A DNA stretch of 64,000 nt from an uncultured Gammaproteobacteria bacterium (GTDB lineage: Bacteria; Patescibacteriota; Microgenomatia; Levybacterales; UBA12049): contig CAZNAA010000002.1 in NCBI GenBank assembly GCA_964571255.1, positions 28,746 through 92,745 of the forward strand. Reading direction: 5' to 3'. The notes under the pieces were generated by a model, which worked only from the letters and a program-made list of their open reading frames with translations, ran no database searches and was not told where the DNA came from. The translations under genes and the position numbers were made by a program. Below, piece by piece: positions 4,354 through 61,686 of the stretch. Numbering within the stretch: position 1 is the first letter of the stretch; every line of letters begins with the position of its first letter.

Positions 4354-4929
4354 ATGGAAACTGGCCCTTCTAAGGAGATACCCTCTGTTGCCTCTCTTAT
4401 CACGACAGCCTTAGCAGAATATACTCCCGGTATTCCTTTTGAGAGAACGGTTGATTACCAAGGAGTACCTATTACTATCCGTTTAACAGATTCACAAATT
4501 GACGTTCAAGCGCACTCATCTGAAACGGTCTATCACTACACTGCTAATCGAAAAGAAGACACGATGGATCAATCTTCCCGCTTGGTCATTCTTGATGAGA
4601 AGAGACAAGACAAAAGAGGCCCTCTTCCCCACCTTACAGAGCTCACAGGACTGGCTCTCACCCATTTAGAACGAGATACCCCAGTACAAAAGCTCGCATC
4701 AGACTGGATGGATATGCCAACTCCAAATACACGAAATGTCAATTTCAATACCTATCAAGAAGCTAAAAAATCTCTTCCTCCCGAAGAAGCAGCTTTCCAA
4801 ACTCCTTCAGGAAAGGTAGCCAGACGATATGGCTTTACTCAGGTTGAGGTTACTGAAACAAGCTATGGACAAATTCCTGTTATTAGAACTCTTTTTTCCC
4901 GACCAACTCCCGATCCAAAGACCCCTTGA
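4354..4929 (+). CDS. hypothetical protein (191 aa)
   Basis: Begins 2 nt after the PEGA gene stop on the same strand, which looks operonic. No recognisable motif. Confidence 0.45.
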   Translation: METGPSKEIPSVASLITTALAEYTPGIPFERTVDYQGVPITIRLTDSQIDVQAHSSETVYHYTANRKEDTMDQSSRLVILDEKRQDKRGPLPHLTELTGLALTHLERDTPVQKLASDWMDMPTPNTRNVNFNTYQEAKKSLPPEEAAFQTPSGKVARRYGFTQVEVTETSYGQIPVIRTLFSRPTPDPKTP

Positions 4930-5129
4930 CTTGACAACTATAGGATTTCTTGCTAGATTAGAGGAACATGTTTTTAAGCTTTTCGCTTGAAACTATGTAT
5001 TGCACTTTTACAACACAGACTGATGACTCAGACCAAAAGTTTGAGTAGATACTAGAATGTGTATCAGAATACTGATTAATAGATCACTCAGCCACGATCA
5101 TATTGTGTATGCACCAAAATGCATATAGA

Positions 5130-5665
5130 GTGTGGTCGTGGATATGAAGGGTCCACGACACATCGGCCAATCTGGGCCAAATGAACTCCCTTCAGGAGGT
5201 TACATGGACGAGCAAAACGAACGTCTTATCCCAATGATTGACCCTAGCCTTCGCAGGCCGGGGTTTGGTATGCCGATGGAGCAGGAGGAAAGCCCGGCTT
5301 CCCCACAAGGAAGCCCAACCGATCCGACCCCTGATATGCTGGAGAGCGATCGCCAGCCGGACGGAATCGAGCCGTGGCTCCGCACAAATCATGGTGGCGG
5401 TGGGCCGCGATGAGTGCAAACACAAACAAGGAAGGGCGAAACCCCGAGTGGGACCAGGAATGGCCGCCTGAAGAGACTGCACCTCTAGATGTGCGGTCCG
5501 CAAGGGAATTGGCCATGGGGGATAAATACCCCCGCCTTCCAGAAACGTCTCCCCGACAACGTGCCGAGGAAGATGAAGCGGGAGAATGGATGAATCCACT
5601 CTTCCCGTTGGCACTATCACAATTCCAGCGATAACCTTTCTGGGGAGCCGGGACCGCCGGCTCCC
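5130..5665 (+). ncRNA. candidate GC-rich structured RNA, unit 1 (class unknown; contains an RNase P CR-I-like string)
   Basis: There is an abrupt GC shift. Only overlapping multi-frame ORFs with Pro/Arg/Gly-rich junk translations are present. The string GGAGGAAAGCCCGGCUUCC lies at 5284-5302. The unit ends in a 9-bp GC hairpin (GGGAGCCGG/CCGGCUCCC, 5643-5665). The 5' boundary is uncertain. Confidence 0.3.
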
Positions 5666-5837
5666 TTCTAGTTATCAGATGGGAAATCATTTAGAGTAGT
5701 ATTTCTTTAGTAACGATTGCGTTTTTAAAGAAAAATACACCTGAGTTTTTTCTTGTTTCCATCAGTCTGTTGTTTGTTCTACTCTCTTTCTTATTCTTTT
5801 CTTACCCCTTCATGCCTATAAATATAATTTTTCCCCC

Positions 5838-5865
5838 TTGCATTTTCACTAATTGGTCTTATAAT
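5838..5865 (+). promoter_or_regulatory. sigma70-like promoter (TTGCAT-16 nt-TATAAT) for GC-rich unit 2
   Basis: TTGCAT lies at 5838-5843 and TATAAT at 5860-5865, followed by ACAG. The paralogous promoters at 6812 and 59238 have the same architecture. Confidence 0.5.
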
Positions 5866-5869
5866 ACAG

Positions 5870-6593
5870 AAATACGTGTGGACTAGCACAACTAGTCCAT
5901 GAGTATAGTTCTTTAACAAGGCACAAAGTAAGTAATAGATACGTATTTTCGTATCCACTTCAGAGAATTTATTTTTTTAGGTGTGTATTTTGTTGATACT
6001 TCGTAATCACCGAGCATGGGTATACTTCTTGTACCTATCCTCGGTGGTTACACGTGTGGCGAAAGCCATATACGTATCATTTATTGTTCACGCTAGGCTT
6101 CGCCTTGCGTGTAACCACCTGCTTCCAACGTCGGTGTTTTGTACGTTTAGTACCTGGCCTACGTAGGCAGAAGGAGGAGGATTTCACCTAACATAGCGCA
6201 GTTCAATCTGCCGTCTGCAACAGAAGCCTTCAACTGAAGGCCACCCAGAGACGGGTAAACTGCAGCGGAAGCGACCCCAGATCACCGGCCAGTTGTGTTC
6301 ATAAGCATCCTGACGTCATCGCCCCTGGCGATGACGATCAAGCACCCCCTGTTGGTTCCACGTGTACCTACGAATGGACGACCAAGGAGTGTGAGAGATG
6401 ATGTCATACCCATGCCCAGCATTTCCAGGCGATGATGGCGACAGCGGGCATCCAATGCCCTATCCAGTCGAAGCGAACGGCAGCAACACCGTGCCCATCC
6501 CCGGCTTCCCGATCCCGTAGTCACACGAAGGACACAGGCGGAAGCTGGGATTTGTCTCTCTGAGGTGGGTGGGGCGCGATGCGCCCTACCCAC
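5870..6593 (+). ncRNA. candidate GC-rich structured RNA, unit 2
   Basis: The leader carries the conserved box GTTCTTTAACAAGGCACA (5908-5925) and GTGTGTATTTTG (5981-5992). A long imperfect helix pairs 6046-6067 with 6096-6116. A terminal 13-bp GC hairpin lies at 6566-6593. There is no coherent ORF. Confidence 0.35.
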
Positions 6594-6811
6594 AAACAAT
6601 CTAAGAAAACCATTTTAAGAAATCAAAAATATCCTAACTCGGCAATTGCGTCGCTTTCTGGAGATTTTTTCTCCAAATGGCCCCTTTCTTATTTTGTCTT
6701 TCTTTGTGCCTGTCTAACCCTTAGAAATAAGACTTTGTTTCTAGAGATTAGGCATTTTGTTATCTCCCCTATTTTTGTTTCCAATTTATTTTTTCTCTAG
6801 ATTCTTCCCTC

Positions 6812-6839
6812 TTGAATTTTTTCCAAAAATGATAATAAT
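6812..6839 (+). promoter_or_regulatory. sigma70-like promoter (TTGAAT-16 nt-AATAAT) for GC-rich unit 3
   Basis: TTGAAT lies at 6812-6817 and AATAAT at 6834-6839, followed by ACAG. It is a paralogue of the promoter at 5838. Confidence 0.45.
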
Positions 6840-6844
6840 ACAGG

Positions 6845-7359
6845 AGACGGTTTCTTTACTCTTTTGTGAAAAAATCGATGTTCTTTAACAAGGCACAGAC
6901 TATTTTCTTGAATTTAGGAAGAGGAGGTATCGCGCAGCGTGTGTATTTTAGTACATAGGTTGTGCGGTCATCTCCTCTTCTGTAAACCAGTTGTTCCCCT
7001 GGGGGATTTGCCCATCCCCAGAAGAGGAGTAGACCGCACTCAACACTTTGGAAGTCCCCATGGCCCCATGCCAATCGGATGAGAAGAGTGTGTGGCGGCA
7101 CTCTTCTTTTTCGCAACGCGTGTTTCTGGTTGGAAGGCTGTCCAATCAGAATTCCTTCGCAAGGAGGAGGACGTGGTGATTTCATATGGAGAGCCGGATG
7201 TCTCGATCCAGGGGAGGTGCCTACCCCTTGGTCGAGCACCCGGCACTCCTATCTCTGGTTTTCAGAGGGATAATACTATCGTATTGCAAAGGTTTTGCAA
7301 CGGAAATGGCGGCGTCCCTCCTGGTGGAGTGGAGTCGGAAGGCGAGCCCGACTCCACTC
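6845..7359 (+). ncRNA. candidate GC-rich structured RNA, unit 3 (paralogue of unit 2)
   Basis: Same leader boxes as unit 2: GTTCTTTAACAAGGCACA at 6880-6897 and GTGTGTATTTTA at 6939-6950. The GC-rich body lacks an ORF. A terminal 12-bp hairpin (GAGTGGAGTCGG/CCGACTCCACTC) lies at 7327-7359. Confidence 0.35.
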
Positions 7360-7486
7360 AAAATAATTCAAGAAAGAAAAACAATATCCAAGTAGGAAAG
7401 TGAGTTTTACTCAAGTAAACAATTGCGTTTTTTTGAGGAGAGATCCTTTTTTACTCCGTGGCACGTTTTTTTTCCTAGTCTGTGCC

Positions 7487-8191
7487 TTATCCTTTTTTGG
7501 GAACTGCTGTTACATAAATTCTCTTCCACGTCGTTCCAGGAGGCCAACAGGTCTGCAAGATGAGTTTTTCCTCTGTCGTATGAGCATCAGTTAAAAACTG
7601 AACTTCATTTGCTTCTCCAACCCGCTGCTCAACTACTCTATAGTCATACCGTCTATCTTCAAAAAAGAGAGTGATATCGTCTCCCTTTTTCAAGTCTTTC
7701 AGGAGATAAAAAATGGCATTATATCGTCCTACATTCCAAAAATTATCCGTTGAGTGAGCGAAAAGATACGTATTGCCTTTCATTCCAGGAAAGACTGTCC
7801 CCTTAGCATGCGCTACTCCTTCTGTTAGGACAGGCAGGAACTCGTCCGATTTTTCTGGATCAATATTTGGAAAGATCTTAGCACTTGCCCCTATTTTTGG
7901 GATCAAAATACTAAATTGTGTATCAGATGGGATCAATATTTGCTCTTTGCTTCCAGATAAAATTTGTCCAAAGCCAATCGATGGAGTCGTTGCGGCACTT
8001 CTCGTAGCAACGTCAATATGTTCAATATCAGCAACCGCAAAGGTTACTCCTCTGTATTTAATCACTTGGTATTGAGCTTCGTAATAGAAAGCAGGTCCAA
8101 AGGTTGCCCCTACTCCATAGAGAGCAAAGAGAAGTAAAAAGTTACCAATTGTTCTGAGGATAAGATATTTTGTAATCTCTGACTTATTCAT
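7487..8191 (-). CDS. sortase (transpeptidase)
   Basis: 234 aa with an N-terminal TM segment. The catalytic LILQTCWP (LxTC) motif is followed by the conserved Arg region. Confidence 0.8.
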   Translation of the reverse strand: MNKSEITKYLILRTIGNFLLLFALYGVGATFGPAFYYEAQYQVIKYRGVTFAVADIEHIDVATRSAATTPSIGFGQILSGSKEQILIPSDTQFSILIPKIGASAKIFPNIDPEKSDEFLPVLTEGVAHAKGTVFPGMKGNTYLFAHSTDNFWNVGRYNAIFYLLKDLKKGDDITLFFEDRRYDYRVVEQRVGEANEVQFLTDAHTTEEKLILQTCWPPGTTWKRIYVTAVPKKG

Positions 8192-8908: not shown

Positions 8909-9166
8909 TTATATTTTTTCGTACACAGTAGATCTATGCCCTGCTGAAATAACCGATATATTTTTATCCTTTTCATCGACAAAATAAATAATTCTAAATA
9001 CCCCAACCCGAAGTGAGTACATATTTGTCAGATTTGCTTTTAAAGGTTTTCCTGAAAATGGATCTTCTTTAAGTTCTTTTAATGCAGATATAATTGCTTG
9101 TCGATGCAATTGTTTAATTACTTTGAGTTCTCTTGCAGCAGGTTTGGTAATAATCAGCTTATACAT
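8909..9166 (-). CDS. type II toxin, RelE/ParE family
   Basis: 85 aa. The pattern LRVGVFRIIYFVDEKDKNISVISAGHR is typical of RelE/ParE. Overlaps the upstream antitoxin ORF by 8 nt. Confidence 0.7.
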   Translation of the reverse strand: MYKLIITKPAARELKVIKQLHRQAIISALKELKEDPFSGKPLKANLTNMYSLRVGVFRIIYFVDEKDKNISVISAGHRSTVYEKI

Positions 9167-9428
9167 GGAGAGATGCTTCGAGTTCTTCTAACGTAATGGT
9201 TTCTCCTTGTGCGAGATCCTTTAATCCCTGTTCAATGCTTGCCATTAAGGAGGAATCTCCCATAATTTCCATTGTTTCTTTCCAGGACTCATACTCTTCA
9301 GACGAAATAAGTACAGCTGAGGGTACTCCGTTTACCGTAATAATATATTCATTTAGTTTAACTTTGGCGTTTTCAACTAACTCTGGTAATTCTTGTCTTA
9401 CTTTACTAATGGGAAGTGTTTGAATCAT
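9159..9428 (-). CDS. antitoxin, Phd/YefM family
   Basis: The ORF is open to 9509, but the likely start is the internal Met at 9428 (MIQTLPISKVRQELPELVE...VLISSEEYESWKETMEI), which is a YefM/Phd fold. An operator palindrome lies immediately upstream. Confidence 0.65.
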   Translation of the reverse strand: MIQTLPISKVRQELPELVENAKVKLNEYIITVNGVPSAVLISSEEYESWKETMEIMGDSSLMASIEQGLKDLAQGETITLEELEASLHV

Positions 9429-9431
9429 GAG

Positions 9432-9459
9432 CTTATTGTACAGAATAATGTACAATAAG
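9432..9459 (-). promoter_or_regulatory. perfect 11-bp inverted repeat (CTTATTGTACA-N6-TGTACAATAAG), putative TA operator
   Basis: Seen directly in the sequence, 4 nt upstream of the antitoxin start codon. Confidence 0.5.
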
Positions 9460-9468
9460 TCAAGAGAC

Positions 9469-9774
9469 TTATTGTAACTTCTCACCCCACTCATTGAGTT
9501 GACTGACAATCTTTTTTAAACCTATGCCTTTTTCAGTTAACGAATACTCTACTTGGAGTGGTTTTTTAGAGACTACTTCACGCACAAGAATATTGTATTT
9601 TTCTAAAGTCCTCAATCTTTGCGTCAATGTCTTCGTACTTACCATTTCTAAGCTCCTGTGGAGCTCACCAAACCGTTTTTTCCCAGAACATAACTGATGG
9701 ATAAGAAGAAGAGTCCATTTGCTTCCTATGACTTTTAGTGCCTTTTCAACCCCACAATTTTTACAACTATCCAT
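9469..9774 (-). CDS. HxlR-family winged-helix transcriptional regulator
   Basis: 101 aa. SKWTLLLIHQL...KKRFGELHRSL...TLTQRLRTLEKYNIL is canonical HxlR/MarR-like. Confidence 0.75.
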   Translation of the reverse strand: MDSCKNCGVEKALKVIGSKWTLLLIHQLCSGKKRFGELHRSLEMVSTKTLTQRLRTLEKYNILVREVVSKKPLQVEYSLTEKGIGLKKIVSQLNEWGEKLQ

Positions 9775-54920: not shown

Positions 54921-56228
54921 CTATTTTCCAAGAGTCTCGAGAAACTCATCATTTGATTCCGTTTGGCTCAATCTCTCAATTAAAATACTCGTTCTTTCAT
55001 CAGGTCCAAGCATATCAATCATTCGTCTCATGGTAACCATTTTCTTATACGTTGGGTCATCAAGCAGCAACTCTTCTTGTCTAGTTCCTGATCTTTCGAC
55101 ATTAATCGCAGGATAAATTCGGCGCTCTGCCAGTCTGCGATCTAAATGCAACTCCATATTTCCCGTTCCCTTAAACTCTTCATAGACCAAGTCATCAAGT
55201 CGGGATCCCGTATCAATCAGAGCTGTTCCAATAATGGTGAGAGAACCTCCGTCTTTGCAGTTTCGAGCTGCTCCAAAAATTCTTTTAGCTGGCCAGAGAG
55301 CAGCTGGATCAAATCCTCCGGAAAGGGTTCGTCCACTAGGCGCAACGGAAAGATTATAGGCACGAGCAAGTCTCGTGATTGAATCTAAAAGAACAATCAC
55401 GTCTTTGCCTGTTTCAACAAGTCGTTTCGCTCGCTCCAGAGCAATTTCAGCAATTCGGGTTTGATCCTCTGGTGGTTCATCAAAGTTTGAGGCAACTACT
55501 TCTCCGTGAACTGATGAGGAAATATCTGTTACTTCCTCAGGACGCTCTCCAACTAAAACGGCCATTAAGAAAGAATCAGGAAAGTTTTTGGCAATTCCTG
55601 CGGCCAAGTCTTTGAGAATGGTTGTCTTTCCTGCTTTTGGAGGAGAAACGATCATTCCACGCTGTCCAAATCCAATAGGAGCTACTAAATCAATAATCCG
55701 AGTTGAAAGAGGCAGTTTGCCTGTTGAAAGAGTAATTTGTTTATTAGGATAAATTGGCGTCAGATCCTCAAACCAAGGTCTATTATATGACTCCTCCCCT
55801 GTTTGTCCATTTACTTTCTCGACCTTTAATAAGCCGTAATATCTTTCATTGTCTTTGGGAGGACGAGCAACTCCTTCAACCAAATCTCCTCCACGCAGCG
55901 CAAACCTTCTAATTTGAGATTGAGAGATATAAATATCACGATTGGAGGGAACAAATTTAGGACGCAAAAACCCATGTCCTTCAGGCTGTAAGTCTAAATA
56001 TCCTTTTACTTCCTCAGTTGGACCTTGTTGAACTGCAGGATATGAGGAAGAATAACCTCCACCATTACCATTTTGACCTCCTTGATCATCATAGGATTGG
56101 TTTGAAGAAGATTGGCTAGATGAGTTTTCCTGAAAATCATCATTTGGAGACACACGACGAGGACGGAGTGTTTTACCCACAAAATCAGCTGCAGAACTTG
56201 AGGAAACTGGTTTTCTTGTATATGGCAT
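54921..56228 (-). CDS. rho: transcription termination factor Rho
   Basis: 435 aa. Has an RNA-binding OB fold and RecA-type ATPase motifs (GQRGMIVSPPKAGKTT; LLDSITRLARAYN). A Q/S/G/N-rich low-complexity insertion lies near the N-terminus. Confidence 0.9.
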   Translation of the reverse strand: MPYTRKPVSSSSAADFVGKTLRPRRVSPNDDFQENSSSQSSSNQSYDDQGGQNGNGGGYSSSYPAVQQGPTEEVKGYLDLQPEGHGFLRPKFVPSNRDIYISQSQIRRFALRGGDLVEGVARPPKDNERYYGLLKVEKVNGQTGEESYNRPWFEDLTPIYPNKQITLSTGKLPLSTRIIDLVAPIGFGQRGMIVSPPKAGKTTILKDLAAGIAKNFPDSFLMAVLVGERPEEVTDISSSVHGEVVASNFDEPPEDQTRIAEIALERAKRLVETGKDVIVLLDSITRLARAYNLSVAPSGRTLSGGFDPAALWPAKRIFGAARNCKDGGSLTIIGTALIDTGSRLDDLVYEEFKGTGNMELHLDRRLAERRIYPAINVERSGTRQEELLLDDPTYKKMVTMRRMIDMLGPDERTSILIERLSQTESNDEFLETLGK

Positions 56229-56366: not shown

Positions 56367-57050
56367 ATGAGAAAATGGATTATTCTAGCACTTCTTTTTG
56401 TTTTAGCTGCACTCATTCCCTCTTTCGCTTTTGCTGATACCGCCTGTCAACCTAGATACGGGGGAGGCGTAACGTGTGATAAGAATACAACAGTTGTGGA
56501 TAAAAAGGTAAAAAATCCCCAAACCAACCTCTATGTAAATACCCTTGATACCAAAGGCCCACTCTTTACACCTACTGACACGGTCATGTTTCGAATAAGT
56601 GTTACCAATATCGGAACGACTGCTCTAACCAATATCCCCTTGGTAGATAACTTTCCTAAGTATCTAACTCACGTAAAGGGCGGAACATGGGATGCTAGTA
56701 AGCGACAAGTGAAGTTTATGATCACCAGACTCGCAGCCAATGAAACTAAGACGTTTGAAATAGAAGCACTTTTATCAGATAAAGAAACTATTTCAGAAAC
56801 AGCCAGTCTGTTTTGTCTCTCCAATACTGCCTCCACGACTCTTTTGGAACAAACCTTTCAAGACAGTGCTCAGTTTTGTATAGAAAAAGAAGGAGAGGAA
56901 ACAATTCCTTCTCAATCTAAAGGTGGACTTCCCGTCTTTACTCCTCAAAAGGGAACTCCTTCTCACACTCCAAAAACCGGAGCAGAAGTAACACTGCTTC
57001 TTCCCATTCTTGGAGGACTAGGGTATTTTCTGAAAAGAAGAACTAACTAA
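56367..57050 (+). CDS. DUF11-like surface protein with C-terminal sorting signal (TPKTGAE + TM + KRRTN)
   Basis: 227 aa with a signal peptide. The DUF11-type repeat domain is (SVTNIGTTALTNIPLVDNFPKYL...W...ANETKTFEIEA). It ends HTPKTGAEVTLLLPILGGLGYFLKRRTN. Confidence 0.6.
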   Translation: MRKWIILALLFVLAALIPSFAFADTACQPRYGGGVTCDKNTTVVDKKVKNPQTNLYVNTLDTKGPLFTPTDTVMFRISVTNIGTTALTNIPLVDNFPKYLTHVKGGTWDASKRQVKFMITRLAANETKTFEIEALLSDKETISETASLFCLSNTASTTLLEQTFQDSAQFCIEKEGEETIPSQSKGGLPVFTPQKGTPSHTPKTGAEVTLLLPILGGLGYFLKRRTN

Positions 57051-59199
57051 CCTTTTTTCCAAATCGCTCACGAGAAACTCTCATGACTTTTTCCTTATTT
57101 TGAGATCTGGAATTAGGAAGTGGCAAAGTGTAGCAGAAGAACGGACTACTCGTTGTTCCATCAATACAAAGTTTTAACATTGCTTGATAGTTTCCTAGAG
57201 CCAAGATATCCTCTTCTTTAAATCTCTCCTTAAACTCTTTGGCCAAATACGTGGCATCATTTGCTCCAACCAGAAAAGTCATCAGAGTCCCTGCATTTCC
57301 AAAAATAGCTGATCTGATATCCTCTTGGACTTGATCAATGTATTGATTTGCTAAAATCAAGCTTAAACGAAACTTTCGAGCTTCAGAGAGAATTTTGATA
57401 AAAGAGGTTGTGGCAAAGTTTTGGAACTCATCAACGTACAAGTAAAAGTCCCGTCTCTCCTCCTCCGGAATAGAAACTCGATTCATTGCGGCCAGTTGAA
57501 TTTTGGTAATAATCATAGCACCAAGTAGTGCTGCATTATCTTCTCCCAAATGACCTTGGGACAAGTTTAAAATAAGAATTTTTCCTTCATTCATGATTTT
57601 TTCTAAATCAATGGTCGATTTGGGATGTCCTATGATATTTCTAATTGTTTTACTTGAGGTAAATTGGCCTACTTTATTAAGAATAGGCGCAACAGCCTCA
57701 GTCATCATCTTTGGATCCATGGCATTAAACTCTTTTTCCCAAAAGTTAATAAGCACTGGATCTGTTAAGTTATCAATCACTTTTTTTCGAAAAGCTGCAT
57801 TGGTCAAAACGTCAGGAACCATAAGAAGAGTTGCATCAGGCATTTCAATAATCGAAACAATCGTGTTTCTTAAAATATACTCAAGCCGAGGCCCCCAGCT
57901 TGTTCCATAGAGTTTTTTGAAAATAGCTACAATTCCTGAAGCAACGAGTTCTTTTTGCGCATCATTCGTTACTTCAAGTGGATTAATCGCAAATTGATAC
58001 TCCGTATCGGCTGGATTCATATAGGCAATATCATTCACCCTATATGAAGGGACAAATTCTAAAATATGCTCACATAAGTCACCGTGTGGATCAATGACAC
58101 AAAACCCACGTCTTTTTCTCAAATCATCAATCGCCATATTGGCAATAAAAGTTGATTTACCCGTACCTGACTTTCCAATGACATACAAGTGACGCCTTCT
58201 ATCCACTTTCTTAATGCCAAAGTTTGTTAACTTATTCTTATATTCAGTCTTTGCAAAAAAGTTAATGTCTTGTAACTCCTCTTCTGTTTTTCCTTCAGAA
58301 ACTGGAAGTGTTTCTGGTGCATCGGAAAGAATTACTCTATGCCAGGCCAAGTTATGAATAGTAGATAGTTTGATATTGGGAAAATGGAAGATACTCGCTA
58401 TTTCCCAGACGTTTAAGATTTGTCCTAAGGGAATAAACTTTCTAGAGCGAGTCACAATAGATTGAATAAGTTGGTCTTTTTGCCAAAATAGAGGTTTTTT
58501 TGTTATCAAGCTATTTGCTGAAGGATGAGCAAAGGTGGCAAAACTTTGCGTGATTTCTGAGAGGTATTTTGAGCCTCTATGACTATCATCACTACTCACG
58601 AGAACTCTAATCCCTGTATTAAACCCAACAACAGATACCTTTTCGGTAATGAGAGCTGCGTAAGGGTTAGGAGAAGTTGTGCCATCACTACTCGTTACCT
58701 TTCCATTAGCAACACCTCTCCCCTTTGACTGCCAGGATGAAGAAACAGGCACCAAAAGATACTGCACCACTGCACTATCCCCCGGCTGACACTTTGAGAG
58801 AATACTCAATACACTGGAGAGTGGATCAACATCTTTGAATTCCCTGACTGTTTTTAATGGATAAATAGAAGGATGAGACAACGTCAAACTCGAAGCAAGC
58901 TTATGAGAAGCTTGTAACATTTCCGGCATATAGTCCTTAACTGCTGAAATGAGTGCTTTGGGGTATTGAGAAAGAAGCTGACTCTCAACAAAAATACGAG
59001 AGGATTCAGGAATGGTGAGATAGAAATGAACGATCTGGTCAATTACGGCAATTTCTAAAGTAATAGGAATTCCCTTTTTCCAAAAATACCTTACTCGAGT
59101 TTTAAGCGTTGTTAAGGTGGTTAAAAACTGCACCATAGCCTCAACTGTTTCTTCTCCAGTCCGGCTTGTTTTGATTTCTAGAACAACTTTCTCACTCAT
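57043..59199 (-). CDS. P-loop ATPase of the FtsK/HerA/TraG-VirD4 (DUF87-like) clade
   Basis: 718 aa. Walker A (VIGKSGTGKSTFIANM) and Walker B (FYLYVDEFQNF) motifs, plus a downstream ARKFRLSLILANQ segment typical of T4SS coupling-protein-like ATPases. Confidence 0.6.
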   Translation of the reverse strand: MSEKVVLEIKTSRTGEETVEAMVQFLTTLTTLKTRVRYFWKKGIPITLEIAVIDQIVHFYLTIPESSRIFVESQLLSQYPKALISAVKDYMPEMLQASHKLASSLTLSHPSIYPLKTVREFKDVDPLSSVLSILSKCQPGDSAVVQYLLVPVSSSWQSKGRGVANGKVTSSDGTTSPNPYAALITEKVSVVGFNTGIRVLVSSDDSHRGSKYLSEITQSFATFAHPSANSLITKKPLFWQKDQLIQSIVTRSRKFIPLGQILNVWEIASIFHFPNIKLSTIHNLAWHRVILSDAPETLPVSEGKTEEELQDINFFAKTEYKNKLTNFGIKKVDRRRHLYVIGKSGTGKSTFIANMAIDDLRKRRGFCVIDPHGDLCEHILEFVPSYRVNDIAYMNPADTEYQFAINPLEVTNDAQKELVASGIVAIFKKLYGTSWGPRLEYILRNTIVSIIEMPDATLLMVPDVLTNAAFRKKVIDNLTDPVLINFWEKEFNAMDPKMMTEAVAPILNKVGQFTSSKTIRNIIGHPKSTIDLEKIMNEGKILILNLSQGHLGEDNAALLGAMIITKIQLAAMNRVSIPEEERRDFYLYVDEFQNFATTSFIKILSEARKFRLSLILANQYIDQVQEDIRSAIFGNAGTLMTFLVGANDATYLAKEFKERFKEEDILALGNYQAMLKLCIDGTTSSPFFCYTLPLPNSRSQNKEKVMRVSRERFGKKVS

Positions 59200-59237: not shown

Positions 59238-59265
59238 TGCACATTCACAAATAGTAGCCTATAAT
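59238..59265 (+). promoter_or_regulatory. sigma70-like promoter (TTGCAC-16 nt-TATAAT-ACA), third copy of the cassette seen at 5838 and 6812
   Basis: TTGCAC lies at 59238-59243 and TATAAT at 59260-59265. A leader box CTTAACAAGG (59323-59332) matches CTTTAACAAGG of the other two copies. Confidence 0.5.
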
Positions 59266-59453
59266 ACAACTAGCTTTTCTCCCATTGTATGCAATGGAGG
59301 AGAAAAAGCACTCTTTTAGCACCTTAACAAGGTATCCACAACATCATCCAGCCTCACATTCTGTACCCTATTCCTTTTAGTATATAGAATGTGTGGCGCA
59401 TGGATGATGCCACAAAGTAACGATTTTACCAATACGCACAGAAGGAGTATCCC

Positions 59454-60506
59454 ATGTCAAAACGGCGACGGATCACAATCGGCCTCATTGGGTTGTTAGT
59501 TTTTAGCCTGCTCTTCCCTCTTAGGGTTGGAGCAGATGACATCCCTCCACGAGAGCTAGCACCCACTATGCATAAAACGCGGTGCGTGCCAAATCAAACA
59601 GTTGGAGATGGAATTCCTACCATTCTTGACGGAGGGGATGGGCACTACGTAGTCCACCCTGAGCTGGCCCCCATCCTGAAACGCGAAGGGGGATTTTGCG
59701 AGATCAAGGCTCTAACCAGCGAATACTCGGAGATCCGCATCACCAGTGCCTCTCCCATCATGGCCATGACTGAGAAAGTACGCCATGAGAAAGTGAAAGA
59801 TATCACTCTGACCGGTAGGACAATAGCGATCTGGATTGACAAGGGCGCAGATGCGTCCAAGATCCTGATCACCGTTCAGTCTGTATTCCTGGACCTGGAT
59901 CCACGAATCGGGGGCGAAAAGTATAATACCCCCGGCTCAACCTACTTCCCGCAAACTGGCCAGAGGATTTCAGAAAAGTTCCTCAAGGCCTGGGAAACTA
60001 ACGGGGGGCTTACCCAGTTCGGCTTCCCTACCTCTCCGGAGGGATTGGAGAGGCTCGAAGACGGCAAGCTCTACAAAATACAGTACTTCGAGCGCGCCCG
60101 ATTCGAGCACCATCCCGAAAACGCGGGGACACGATACGAAGTGATGCTCGGTCAATTCGGCCGACGAATTCATGGGAAGATAGATCCTAACGCCGAGCGG
60201 GCGAAGGATCATACCTGCAGCTATTTCCAGCTTACGTTGGATATAGGCCACAATCTCTGTGGCTCCTTCAACGAGTACTGGGTAACCCATGGCGGGCTTG
60301 CCCAATTCGGGTTCCCGATCACCGAGGAATTCGAAGAAACGCTGGAGGATGGTAAAACCTATCGGGTTCAGTACTTCGAGCGCGCCCGATTCGAGCACCA
60401 TCCAGAGAACCCAGCTCCCTATAACATTCTCCTCGGCCAATTCGGCCGAAGGATTCTAGCTGACTTAGCAAACCAACGCCTAACAAGCGCTGGTAACAAT
60501 AAGTAG
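59454..60506 (+). CDS. GC-rich secreted tandem-repeat protein (350 aa), probably horizontally acquired
   Basis: Strong SD (AGAAGGAG, then 7 nt, then ATG). Has a signal peptide. Two ~100-aa repeats of the form ...GGL.QFGFP...EDGK.Y..QYFERARFEHHPEN...LGQFGRRI. GC is far above the genome background. Confidence 0.65.
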   Translation: MSKRRRITIGLIGLLVFSLLFPLRVGADDIPPRELAPTMHKTRCVPNQTVGDGIPTILDGGDGHYVVHPELAPILKREGGFCEIKALTSEYSEIRITSASPIMAMTEKVRHEKVKDITLTGRTIAIWIDKGADASKILITVQSVFLDLDPRIGGEKYNTPGSTYFPQTGQRISEKFLKAWETNGGLTQFGFPTSPEGLERLEDGKLYKIQYFERARFEHHPENAGTRYEVMLGQFGRRIHGKIDPNAERAKDHTCSYFQLTLDIGHNLCGSFNEYWVTHGGLAQFGFPITEEFEETLEDGKTYRVQYFERARFEHHPENPAPYNILLGQFGRRILADLANQRLTSAGNNK

Positions 60507-60555
60507 ATTCACTCTGCGCAGTATTGGGATCAGCTCAAAAGAATGGAGCTGGACC

Positions 60556-60573
60556 GGAGAGGAAAACCTCTCC
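60556..60573 (+). terminator. stem-loop GGAGAGG-AAAA-CCTCTCC downstream of the GC-rich gene
   Basis: Perfect 7-bp stem seen in the sequence. The following sequence is only weakly T-rich. Confidence 0.3.
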
Positions 60574-61686
60574 TGCGCATCCCTTTGTGGGAAAAGATCA
60601 ATCAATTCTTCTTCTTCTCAAAGTAGCAATAGCGCTTATCTGAGAAAATGCAGACAGGATTGACCTTTAGGATACCTTGTAAACATCCGTTTTCTTCCTC
60701 AGAACTTGACAATCCCAACAAAAATAGTACAATACTATAAGTCTTGATGTTTTTATGCTCTTTTGGGCGTAAAATCTATTAGACACGCACATTTACAATA
60801 TACAGGGTCTAATAAAACCCACGTACTGGAGATAAGCTTCTTAGTATCATAAGAGTCTTTTCTCCGGTATGTGGACAGCTGATTGACAGCTTTTCCACTC
60901 TGGATACTGAGGCCACAAGCCTCAAGGAGCCATCAGTGGCACGAAAACCCAAGACACCGGTCCCAGTAATACGACGGGAGACCTTTCCAGTATGGAAGGA
61001 AAACTTAGTAAAAATAGGAGTAATAATCCTACTTCTCTCAATTCCAACCCTAATCTTCCTCTCCTACTTGGCAAGGTAGAACTTCCTCTTCCCCTTCGGG
61101 GACCTGGTCCAGGTGCACAACGAAGTGCAGCTGGGAGGGTTCAAATCCCTCAAGAGGAACCGCTGCAAAGCGCATGTGCGCATGGCAGAAAACTGGGAGG
61201 GACAAATGACGCCATACGGTCGGTTCGAGGAGCTGATAAAACGTCTTTTTGGGCCACTCTTGGCCCGAATGAACCACGCAACAGAGTGGTTCGTCAACCA
61301 CTTTGGCTTCTTCAGCGAAAGGAGGGATGTCGACAATGAGTAGGATGCCAGGAGGGTGTGTTGTCCTCCTTATTAGTGCCTTACTCCTTCTAGGAGCGAT
61401 CCTGGAGGGAGTGGGAATCATTGTCCCGTGAGAAACAGATCGGGTGAGCTCCGGTAAAGCAAGCTCAATCAGCCTTTAGAGGAAAGAAATGAACAAAAAA
61501 AAACGGTATCAATTGCGATACCTTAGAGTTTTCCGTTTTCTTCTCTTCCTGGCACACATTTGTGCCCCCTGTATATTCAACCAACAACAATACAATAAAG
61601 ATTCACCTCTAAATGGCTCATAGTCCTTATTTCCCTAACTCCTTGACATATCCTATAATCTTTTGCTATACTCTGTTTGAGGTTAT

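Follow-up and report, generated by a model that had tools for sequence, protein, structure and literature searches.

A patch of GC-rich DNA in an AT-rich bacterial genome may hold RNA genes or small coding genes of foreign type, and the composition alone does not tell the two apart. Such a patch lies between the gene for a 191-amino acid (aa) protein and a convergent sortase gene on contig CAZNAA010000002.1, in a 64-kb stretch of DNA that we call the window. An initial annotation had described tandem GC-rich units here behind paralogous promoter/leader cassettes and had proposed a family of large structured RNAs. The three GC-rich bodies are as described (about 5130-5665, 6000-6595 and 6950-7360, with a GC content of 0.55-0.61 against a background of about 0.39), and the spacers between them have a GC content of 0.31-0.33. 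The paralogous cassettes also proved to be real, and the family has five members. The region 4931-7488 is predicted to comprise three transcription units (unit 1, 4931-5770; unit 2, 5838-6711; unit 3, 6812-7488; Table 1), and units 4 and 5, which were found by leader alignment, account for a second GC-rich area at 59.2-61.6 kb. Our reading, for and against which the evidence is evenly balanced, is that the region holds three of five paralogous cassettes that resemble ribosomal RNA (rRNA) operons, resist Rho and serve GC-rich, partly foreign genes and RNAs. The element would then be a new one, in which the leader/trailer architecture of rRNA is reused for cargo other than rRNA.

Same-genome sequences were available in Logan assemblies (L001-L003 and L007). 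We also used a related genome (L004/L005/L006 with L044, from ENA ERZ15185638), a third genome represented by a 1.3-kb contig (L046), and a more distant contig that covers unit 4 only (L045). The relatives were found by exact look-ups, and the lineage is thinly sampled. As a yardstick of constraint we took the divergence of silent sites, which is 40-70% between genomes overall (proportion of synonymous differences, pS, 0.4-0.7). In six flanking genes, 40-62% of the silent sites differ between the window and L004, and the ratio of nonsynonymous to synonymous substitution rates (dN/dS) is 0.04-0.10. Between genomes, identity is 88-100% in leaders, spacers, promoters and unit 3, which for the spacers, promoters and leaders greatly exceeds what neutral evolution would leave.

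The promoter-like sites of units 2 and 3 are at the places given in the initial annotation. Unit 1, which it had begun at 5130, has its own promoter and box upstream of that position. From the −10 elements, transcription of the three units would start near 4966, 5872 and 6846, respectively. The GC hairpins that had been taken for the ends of the units are present at the sites described, but the units do not end there: each runs about 100-130 nt further, as far as a stretch that can pair with its own leader.

Table 1. Predicted features of the five units and of the two genes that flank units 1 to 3. Positions are those of the window; aa, amino acids; ORF, open reading frame.
Unit	Feature	Position	Strand	Details
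	191-aa ORF	4354-4929		5' neighbour of the three-unit GC-rich region
1	Promoter-like site	4931-4959	+	TTGACA-17-TAGATT, TG ahead of −10; conserved in L004
1	5' hairpin	4966-4998	+	Precedes box
1	boxA-like box	5002-5013	+	GCACTTTTACAA; 2 mismatches to GYTCTTTAANA
1	Leader strand	5015-5031	+	ACAGACTGATG pairs with 5760-5770; ACTCAG pairs with 5741-5746
1	Leader hairpins	5092-5159	+	22 bp, 5092-5113/5120-5141, overlapping 8 bp, 5135-5142/5152-5159
1	ORF1	5204-5413	+	69 aa; ribosome-binding site AGGAGG 5194-5199
1	ORF2	5410-5634	+	74 aa; start overlaps ORF1 stop (ATGA)
1	Terminal GC hairpin	5643-5665	+	No T-tract
1	Hexaloop hairpin	5702-5733	+	Loop GATTGC (AATTGC in relatives), then T-run
1	Trailer strand	5741-5770	+	Complementary to 5015-5031
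1	Exact leader/trailer pair	5015-5025 / 5760-5770		11 nt
2	Promoter-like site	5838-5865	+	TTGCAT-N16-TATAAT; identical in L004 and L046
2	5' hairpin	5872-5906	+	Occupies position of boxB in rRNA leaders
2	boxA-like box	5908-5919	+	GTTCTTTAACAA; exact GYTCTTTAANA; 100% conserved in 3 genomes
2	Leader strand	5919-5932	+	Pairs with 6698-6711
2	Structured domain, predicted non-coding	6003-6268	+	Hairpins 6007-6050, 6043-6119, 6226-6241; helix 6211-6219/6261-6268
2	Hypervariable segment	6270-6390	+	About 33% identity to L004, the level of random sequence
2	Small ORF	6398-6520	+	40 aa (31 aa in L004); ribosome-binding site AAGGAG 6378-6383
2	Terminal GC hairpin	6566-6593	+	No T-tract
2	Hexaloop hairpin	6640-6653	+	Loop AATTGC
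2	Trailer strand	6698-6711	+	Partner of 5919-5932
2	Exact leader/trailer pair	5919-5928 / 6702-6711		10 nt
3	Promoter-like site	6812-6839	+	TTGAAT-N16-AATAAT
3	boxA-like box	6880-6891	+	Exact consensus match; preceded by 5' hairpin 6849-6876
3	Leader strand	6890-6914	+	Pairs in two parts, 13/13 and 11/11
3	GC-rich body, putatively non-coding	6916-7322	+	Competing helices 6916-6937/6962-6982 and 6962-6982/7019-7039
3	Terminal GC hairpin	7327-7359	+	No T-tract; U-A to A-U swap in L004
3	Trailer	7365-7488	+	Strands 7365-7375 and 7476-7488 flank AATTGC-loop hairpin 7410-7437
3	Exact leader/trailer pair	6890-6902 / 7476-7488		13 nt
3	Second leader/trailer pair	6904-6914 / 7365-7375		11 nt
	Sortase gene	7487-8191	−	Convergent neighbour 3' of unit 3
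4	Whole unit	59238-60680	+	Promoter, 5' hairpin, box GCACCTTAACAA (59319), 350-aa ORF 59454-60506
4	Exact leader/trailer pair	59327-59337 / 60670-60680		11 nt
5	Whole unit	60709-61577	+	Promoter, box GCACATTTACAA (60787), ORFs of 47, 45 and 31 aa, AATTGC hairpin 61505-61522
5	Exact leader/trailer pair	60797-60807 / 61567-61577		11 nt

The complementary strand of the leader starts directly after the box, is 10-14 nt long and is specific to its unit. When every leader was paired with every trailer, a unit's own trailer gave the best duplex in all five rows of the matrix, and the complementary arms were kept in every orthologue seen, including those of unit 3 in L004. Some of the differences compensate one another. 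Unit 4 of L045 has a 14-bp helix in which an A·A mismatch is replaced by a G-C pair, and in the 6-bp extension of the unit 1 helix L004 has A-U in place of G-C and G·U in place of A-U. Complementary flanks, as expected of the precursors of stable RNAs, were found in 5/5 units, with compensating changes in L045 and L004, and the arms probably pair at the level of RNA. Between the GC hairpin and the trailer strand stands a further hairpin with the hexaloop (A/G)ATTGC (5712-5723, 6640-6653, 7417-7430 and 61505-61522), often followed by a T-run. Its stems covary between units (AAC/GTT, CGGC/GTCG, AAAC/GTTT and GGTATC/GATACC), and the loop of unit 3 reads AGAAGC in L004. The hexaloop hairpin could terminate transcription or bind a protein. 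As for the GC hairpins, they lack a T-tract; they are therefore not canonical terminators and were not called as such.

The 18-nt box GTTCTTTAACAAGGCACA is exact at 5908 and 6880, as had been reported, and none of 100 shuffles had two hits to it. The boxes of units 2 and 3, GTTCTTTAACA, agree exactly with the published boxA consensus GYTCTTTAANA; this consensus is gamma-proteobacterial, and boxA varies with phylogeny. Neither the match to boxA nor the leader-trailer pairing had been part of the initial annotation. A degenerate pattern, GYWCNTTWACAA, which was derived from the five unit leaders themselves, matched only those five sites, all on the + strand, when both strands of the window were searched; there is therefore no sixth unit in it. 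In all five units and in L045 the box lies 34-47 nt past the predicted start and after a 5' hairpin, and the order of hairpin, boxA and helix strand is that of rRNA leaders. We give an even chance to the box working as boxA. Exact-pattern scans with GTTCTTTAACAAGGCACA gave 8 hits in GTDB genomes, 28 in JGI metagenomes and 2 in IMG/VR, all of them chance matches in unrelated genes. CsrA sites were ruled out, as there is no GGA. Another sequence, GTGTGGCG, recurs in units 2, 3 and 4 at variable distance and in differing contexts (4 occurrences in the window, 0.39 expected).

A cassette would thus consist of a sigma-70-type promoter, a 5' hairpin, a boxA-like box, a leader strand of 10-14 nt, a GC-rich folded body, a GC hairpin without a U-tract, an AAUUGC-loop hairpin and a trailer strand. 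In our reading, NusB and NusE (S10) would load on boxA and RNA polymerase would then resist Rho, a role of boxA that is known from rRNA and CRISPR arrays; this would allow a long, untranslated, structured GC-rich RNA to be transcribed to its end. Closure of the transcript would then fall to the leader-trailer helix, as in pre-16S and pre-23S rRNA, and this helix could serve folding, protection of the ends or processing by RNase III. We infer all of this, from boxA function to the RNA ends, their processing and the role of the unit 3 RNA. The Rho gene lies at 54921-56228 on the minus strand and encodes Rho_RNA_bind and ATPase domains; the protein is extended at its N terminus by a long stretch rich in S, Q and N. 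Since the codon usage of the cargo is of foreign type and unit 4 carries a domain of Chloroflexota type (see below), the cassettes may enable an AT-rich, Rho-bearing genome to express genes that are GC-rich and either acquired or structured. It is rather doubtful that in this uncultivated bacterium, presumably one of the candidate phyla radiation, they form a dedicated set which mimics rRNA operons, with boxA antitermination and a closing leader-trailer helix in each, to express GC-rich, partly acquired cargo that Rho would silence, with unit 3 becoming a new structured non-coding RNA of ~0.5 kb and the high GC content at third codon positions (GC3) of the cargo being selected through this mode of expression.

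How much of the cargo is RNA? The claim that the region holds no believable ORF was wrong for unit 1. ORF1, ORF2 and their ATGA overlap are all kept in three genomes, and the indels within them are all multiples of 3 (15 and 6 nt in ORF1; 9 and 3 nt in ORF2). Third codon positions hold 30 of the 49 differences in ORF1, and dN/dS is 0.09-0.26 for ORF1 and 0.33-0.53 for ORF2. With kept frames, indels in multiples of three, a third-position bias and a dN/dS below 1, unit 1 has the signature of protein-coding DNA and is very probably coding; the comparative evidence shows a predicted mRNA for two translationally coupled, fast-evolving small proteins. Among 1.84 billion representatives, the only homologue of ORF1 was one orthologue; a match to a 4419-aa repeat protein was rejected as a low-complexity artefact. 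Homologue searches with ORF2 and with the flanking 191-aa protein returned only orthologues from the same narrow lineage, and the small ORFs had no match in Pfam, PHROGs or PADLOC. An alternative genetic code was ruled out, as the native genes translate normally under table 11. The GC hairpin of unit 1 and the ~90 nt that follow it are nearly 100% identical in three genomes. In its leader, the 22-bp hairpin is rich in U·G pairs and therefore forms on the + strand only; two of the wobbles are Watson-Crick pairs in L004. Nucleotides 5135-5141 are common to two competing, mutually exclusive hairpins.

Unit 3 behaves differently from unit 1, and here the claim of no ORF holds: none of its ORFs in the window is conserved in L004. 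Against that genome it has indels of 1, 3, 1, 1, 1, 1, 2, 1, 1 and 14 nt, a single one of which is a multiple of three and about eight of which break the frame. The substitutions show no codon periodicity and amount to 0.09-0.15 per nt, that is, about 88% conservation, over the whole 520 nt. Indels out of frame, the lack of periodicity and the small number of substitutions together indicate that unit 3 is constrained and non-coding. That it is non-coding and functional is quite likely, and it looks like a candidate non-coding RNA of ~520-640 nt that belongs to no known family. One double compensatory change was seen in it (7217/7229). Its trailer shares nucleotides with the stop codon of the sortase gene, which is convergent with the unit, and the leader strand is a further possible partner of 6916-6927. 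The mutually exclusive helices of units 1 and 3 suggest a co-transcriptional switch.

The proposal of RNA genes rather than coding sequences likewise stands for the first ~530 nt of unit 2, on the same grounds of indels, periodicity, fold and conservation, which at 0.09-0.15 substitutions per nt is again far above that of silent sites. Between about 5872 and 6397, indels measure 1, 3, 2, 7, 4, 1 and 2 nt and the substitutions are without codon periodicity; no sign of protein coding was found at 6000-6390. The long helix noted in the initial annotation is present, with 6043-6063 paired to 6099-6119, and this hairpin has two adjacent double compensatory changes. Hairpin 6007-6050 has a G-C to A-U change and hairpin 6226-6241 a U-A to C-G change. 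In the hypervariable segment, 120 nt that cannot be aligned between strains, L004 and L046 are alike and the window differs, while the flanks are well conserved, a pattern which suggests that the segment was replaced locally, or diverged very fast, in the strain of the window. The unit ends in a small ORF with the common motif MM-YP-CPAFP-DDG-HP and a dN/dS of about 0.2 over 28 codons, so that its coding nature is weakly supported. Unit 2 is, as far as prediction goes, a long structured leader, a non-coding RNA of ~530 nt, that ends in an ORF of 31-40 aa. In L004, the site that corresponds to its GC hairpin differs in sequence but likewise folds into a GC hairpin.

The initial annotation had likened the units to GOLLD, ROOL and HEARO or to RNase P, tmRNA and 6S RNA. 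The Rfam scan that it proposed gave no match to any of these, either at the gathering score or at E<=10. Two tRNAs, and nothing else, were found at the gathering score in the whole window, and the top match at E<=10 on 4900-7600 was a microRNA model that scored 31.7 bits where 80 are required; it reflects no more than a hairpin and is not credible. A blastn search of phage genomes with units 2 and 3 gave no match. Unit 3 and the leader of unit 2 share with GOLLD, ROOL, HEARO, OLE, raiA, RNase P, tmRNA, 6S and the signal recognition particle RNA a size of ~500 nt, a high GC content, a strong predicted fold and the lack of an ORF. They differ from these large ornate and housekeeping RNAs in having no covariance-model match, a very narrow distribution (the cassette family is known from three to four related genomes only) and an overall fold without covariation support.

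Folding was scored against dinucleotide-preserving shuffles of compositionally homogeneous pieces. The z-score was −9.65 for the body of unit 3, −7.0 for the 5' domain and −6.6 for the body of unit 2, −5.2 for the leader of unit 1 (−3.3 on the minus strand) and −2.5 for its coding region, compared with 0 to −0.9 for four native coding regions. A consensus fold of unit 3 (alifold) has 0 broken pairs, a result that is biased by construction, and two-sequence shuffle controls have no power for counts of changed pairs. Cross-alignment of the bodies of units 2 and 3 revealed no real homology beyond the box and the motif AAGGAGG...GATTTCA. In this motif, AAGGAGGAGGA is followed by GATTTCA(C/T) (6170-6186 and 7160-7184), and it is conserved in relatives. 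It lies 190-220 nt past GTGTGTATTTT, with 7-9 extra nt in unit 3, and no start codon comes after it in unit 2.

Several observations weigh against a reading of the region as rRNA-operon-like cassettes. The consensus GYTCTTTAANA is expected 0.76 times in the AT-rich window, and at least 2 hits were obtained in 17 of 100 shuffles, so that agreement with boxA has no statistical significance by itself. The two boxes that agree exactly are paralogous; those of units 1, 4 and 5 depart from the consensus at 2-3 places, and in L044 two positions of the unit 5 box are changed. No clear boxC, that is, a GU-rich sequence 18-19 nt past boxA within the leader-trailer helix, was found. The GT-rich second box GTGTGTATTTT of the initial annotation is present at 5981 and 6939 (59-73 nt downstream of the box), but it is lost in unit 2 of L004. 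The cores of the leader-trailer helices are short, 10-14 bp as compared with 25-40 bp in enterobacterial rRNA, and they are perfectly Watson-Crick; most of the arms cannot separate RNA pairing from DNA inverted repeats. The T-rich AATTGC hairpin lies upstream of the trailer strand and could terminate transcription first. When the minimum free energy (MFE) structure of unit 3 was transferred to L004, 15 of the 35 changed pairs were kept and 20 were broken, a result within the range of mRNA controls; single helices are supported, and a global fold of unit 3 is not. Finally, only two or three close metagenome genomes were available for comparison, and unit 3 was covered by two genomes only.

In a first rival account, all three units are ordinary mRNAs for fast-evolving small proteins with long structured 5' untranslated regions (UTRs) and the box is a lineage-specific regulatory element other than boxA. 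Unit 3 could encode, for example, a peptide from GTG 7173/7176 behind AAGGAGGAGG (VVISYGEPDVSI...). ORFs with ribosome-binding sites do occur in units 1, 2, 4 and 5, the match to boxA lacks significance when taken by itself, and in unit 3 L004 keeps the strong site AAGGAGGAGG, the GTG GTG start and the first 12 codons, apart from a single synonymous difference. That frame, however, has 18 codons in L004 as opposed to 76 in the window and is followed by frameshifting indels. Unit 3 has no third-position bias, it is conserved over all 520 nt and not just near the short ORF, and the same purine tract occurs in unit 2 without a start codon. We consider it unlikely that all three units are such mRNAs.

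The arms could also be inverted repeats of the DNA, either those of an inverton that flips the body against a fixed promoter or the ends of a mobile cassette. Perfect inverted repeats of 10-14 bp do flank each body with the promoter outside, the cargo varies among units and looks foreign, and one segment of unit 2 has been replaced or is hypervariable between strains. Yet seven independent assemblies (L001-L003, L007 and L004-L006) are all collinear, so both orientations were not seen among them, and a partial check of the neighbourhoods of the two clusters revealed no recombinase beside either. The arms are unit-specific and offer no common recombinase site, and in units 1 and 3 they are split one-sidedly by insertions of 14 nt and 100 nt, which is typical of RNA helices. 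One substitution in L004 yields a G·U pair that is allowed only in the + strand RNA, and the arm stands directly 3' of the boxA-like box, as in rRNA leaders. This explanation is very improbable. Integron cassettes were ruled out because there is no attC-like core and no integrase. Miniature inverted-repeat transposable elements (MITEs) were rejected because the arms are unit-specific; common terminal repeats and target-site duplications were not looked for.

It is more improbable still that the bodies are functionless, decaying acquired DNA (pseudogenes) behind duplicated promoters, with folds that are a by-product of GC content: the composition is foreign-like, the unit 1 proteins have no homologues outside the lineage and the middle of unit 2 is hypervariable, but unit 3 and the leaders are 88-100% identical against a silent-site divergence of 40-70%, purifying selection acts on the unit 1 ORFs, high GC3 is upheld in three diverged genomes, and the shuffles of homogeneous pieces controlled for GC content in the fold z-scores.

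The cassettes that we favour have their closest counterpart in rRNA operon leaders, in which boxB-boxA-boxC antitermination is combined with leader-trailer helices that flank 16S and 23S rRNA (PMC10250234). Both have a promoter, a hairpin, boxA and the 5' strand of a helix, with the 3' strand beyond a structured GC-rich RNA, in a genome with Rho. Unlike the rRNA operons, the cassettes carry cargo that is not rRNA (Rfam found none) and that in some units encodes proteins, and each unit has its own promoter. Their helices are of 10-14 bp (24 bp, split, in unit 3), and the helix strand follows boxA directly, whereas in rRNA leaders it lies in boxC, 18-19 nt further on; the cassettes have no convincing boxC. 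Outside rRNA, boxA has been described in the suhB 5' UTR and in CRISPR array leaders, where control of Rho termination of long untranslated RNA was proposed (PMC5725501, PMC7665894). There too the box stands in the leader of a transcript that is not rRNA, but those are single sites without a leader-trailer helix, whereas the units described here form a paralogous family. In the suhB-type search boxA was within 50 nt of an ORF, and the cassette box stands 190-490 nt ahead of any.

The 5' and 3' flanks of RNase III-processed precursors, such as those of stable RNAs and the early mRNAs of phage T7, pair with each other. The flanking complementarity of the cassettes could likewise set the ends and leave protective hairpins, although their helices are near the lower length of RNase III substrates. 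Antitermination by boxA together with leader-trailer helices is regarded as a hallmark of rRNA synthesis, and boxA has only recently been recognised at a few other loci. If our reading is true, the mechanism of rRNA leaders extends to general gene expression, a way is suggested in which an AT-rich genome with Rho can express GC-rich acquired genes, and a poorly studied lineage gains one more candidate for a large, new non-coding RNA.

Units 4 and 5 carry a 350-aa gene and three small ORFs, and the family is therefore not one of RNA genes as such. Cassette ORFs have a GC3 of 0.5-0.72, compared with 0.28-0.39 for native genes in the window, L044 and L045; for the ORF of unit 4, a GC3 of 0.60-0.72 is maintained in the three genomes. 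The unit 4 protein has a signal peptide. Its C-terminal half shares 55-64% identity with a domain that thousands of Chloroflexota proteins contain, which suggests a horizontal origin, and horizontal acquisition of this domain is probable. A search of Pfam with the domain gave no match; it is a tandem repeat with the motif ...GGLxQFGFP...YFERARFEHHPEN... A leader hairpin, TGTGGC-GCATGGATGAT-GCCACA (59392-59414), lies ~35 nt ahead of the ribosome-binding site of unit 4. Across the window, L044 and the distant L045 this hairpin hardly varies, while the leader around it has diverged. Two of the three small ORFs of unit 5 are membrane-like, and the three diverge in the manner of coding sequences. 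Between them is a non-coding block of ~100 nt (61098-61200) that is about 97% identical to L044, above the value for the ORFs. Within this block, GAGGG-TTCAAAT-CCCTC (61135-61151) resembles the T-arm of a tRNA; it was not called by Rfam or by the tRNA model.

Units 4 and 5 adjoin a TrwB/HerA-like ATPase gene (57043-59199, minus strand) and DUF11 surface-protein genes, with synteny in L044 and L045. Elsewhere in the window, two giant neighbouring ORFs (3710 and 3587 aa) occupy 28638-50604 on the + strand. Small overlapping ORF pairs on the minus strand, at 2468-2991 and 8909-9509, look toxin-antitoxin-like from their translations only.

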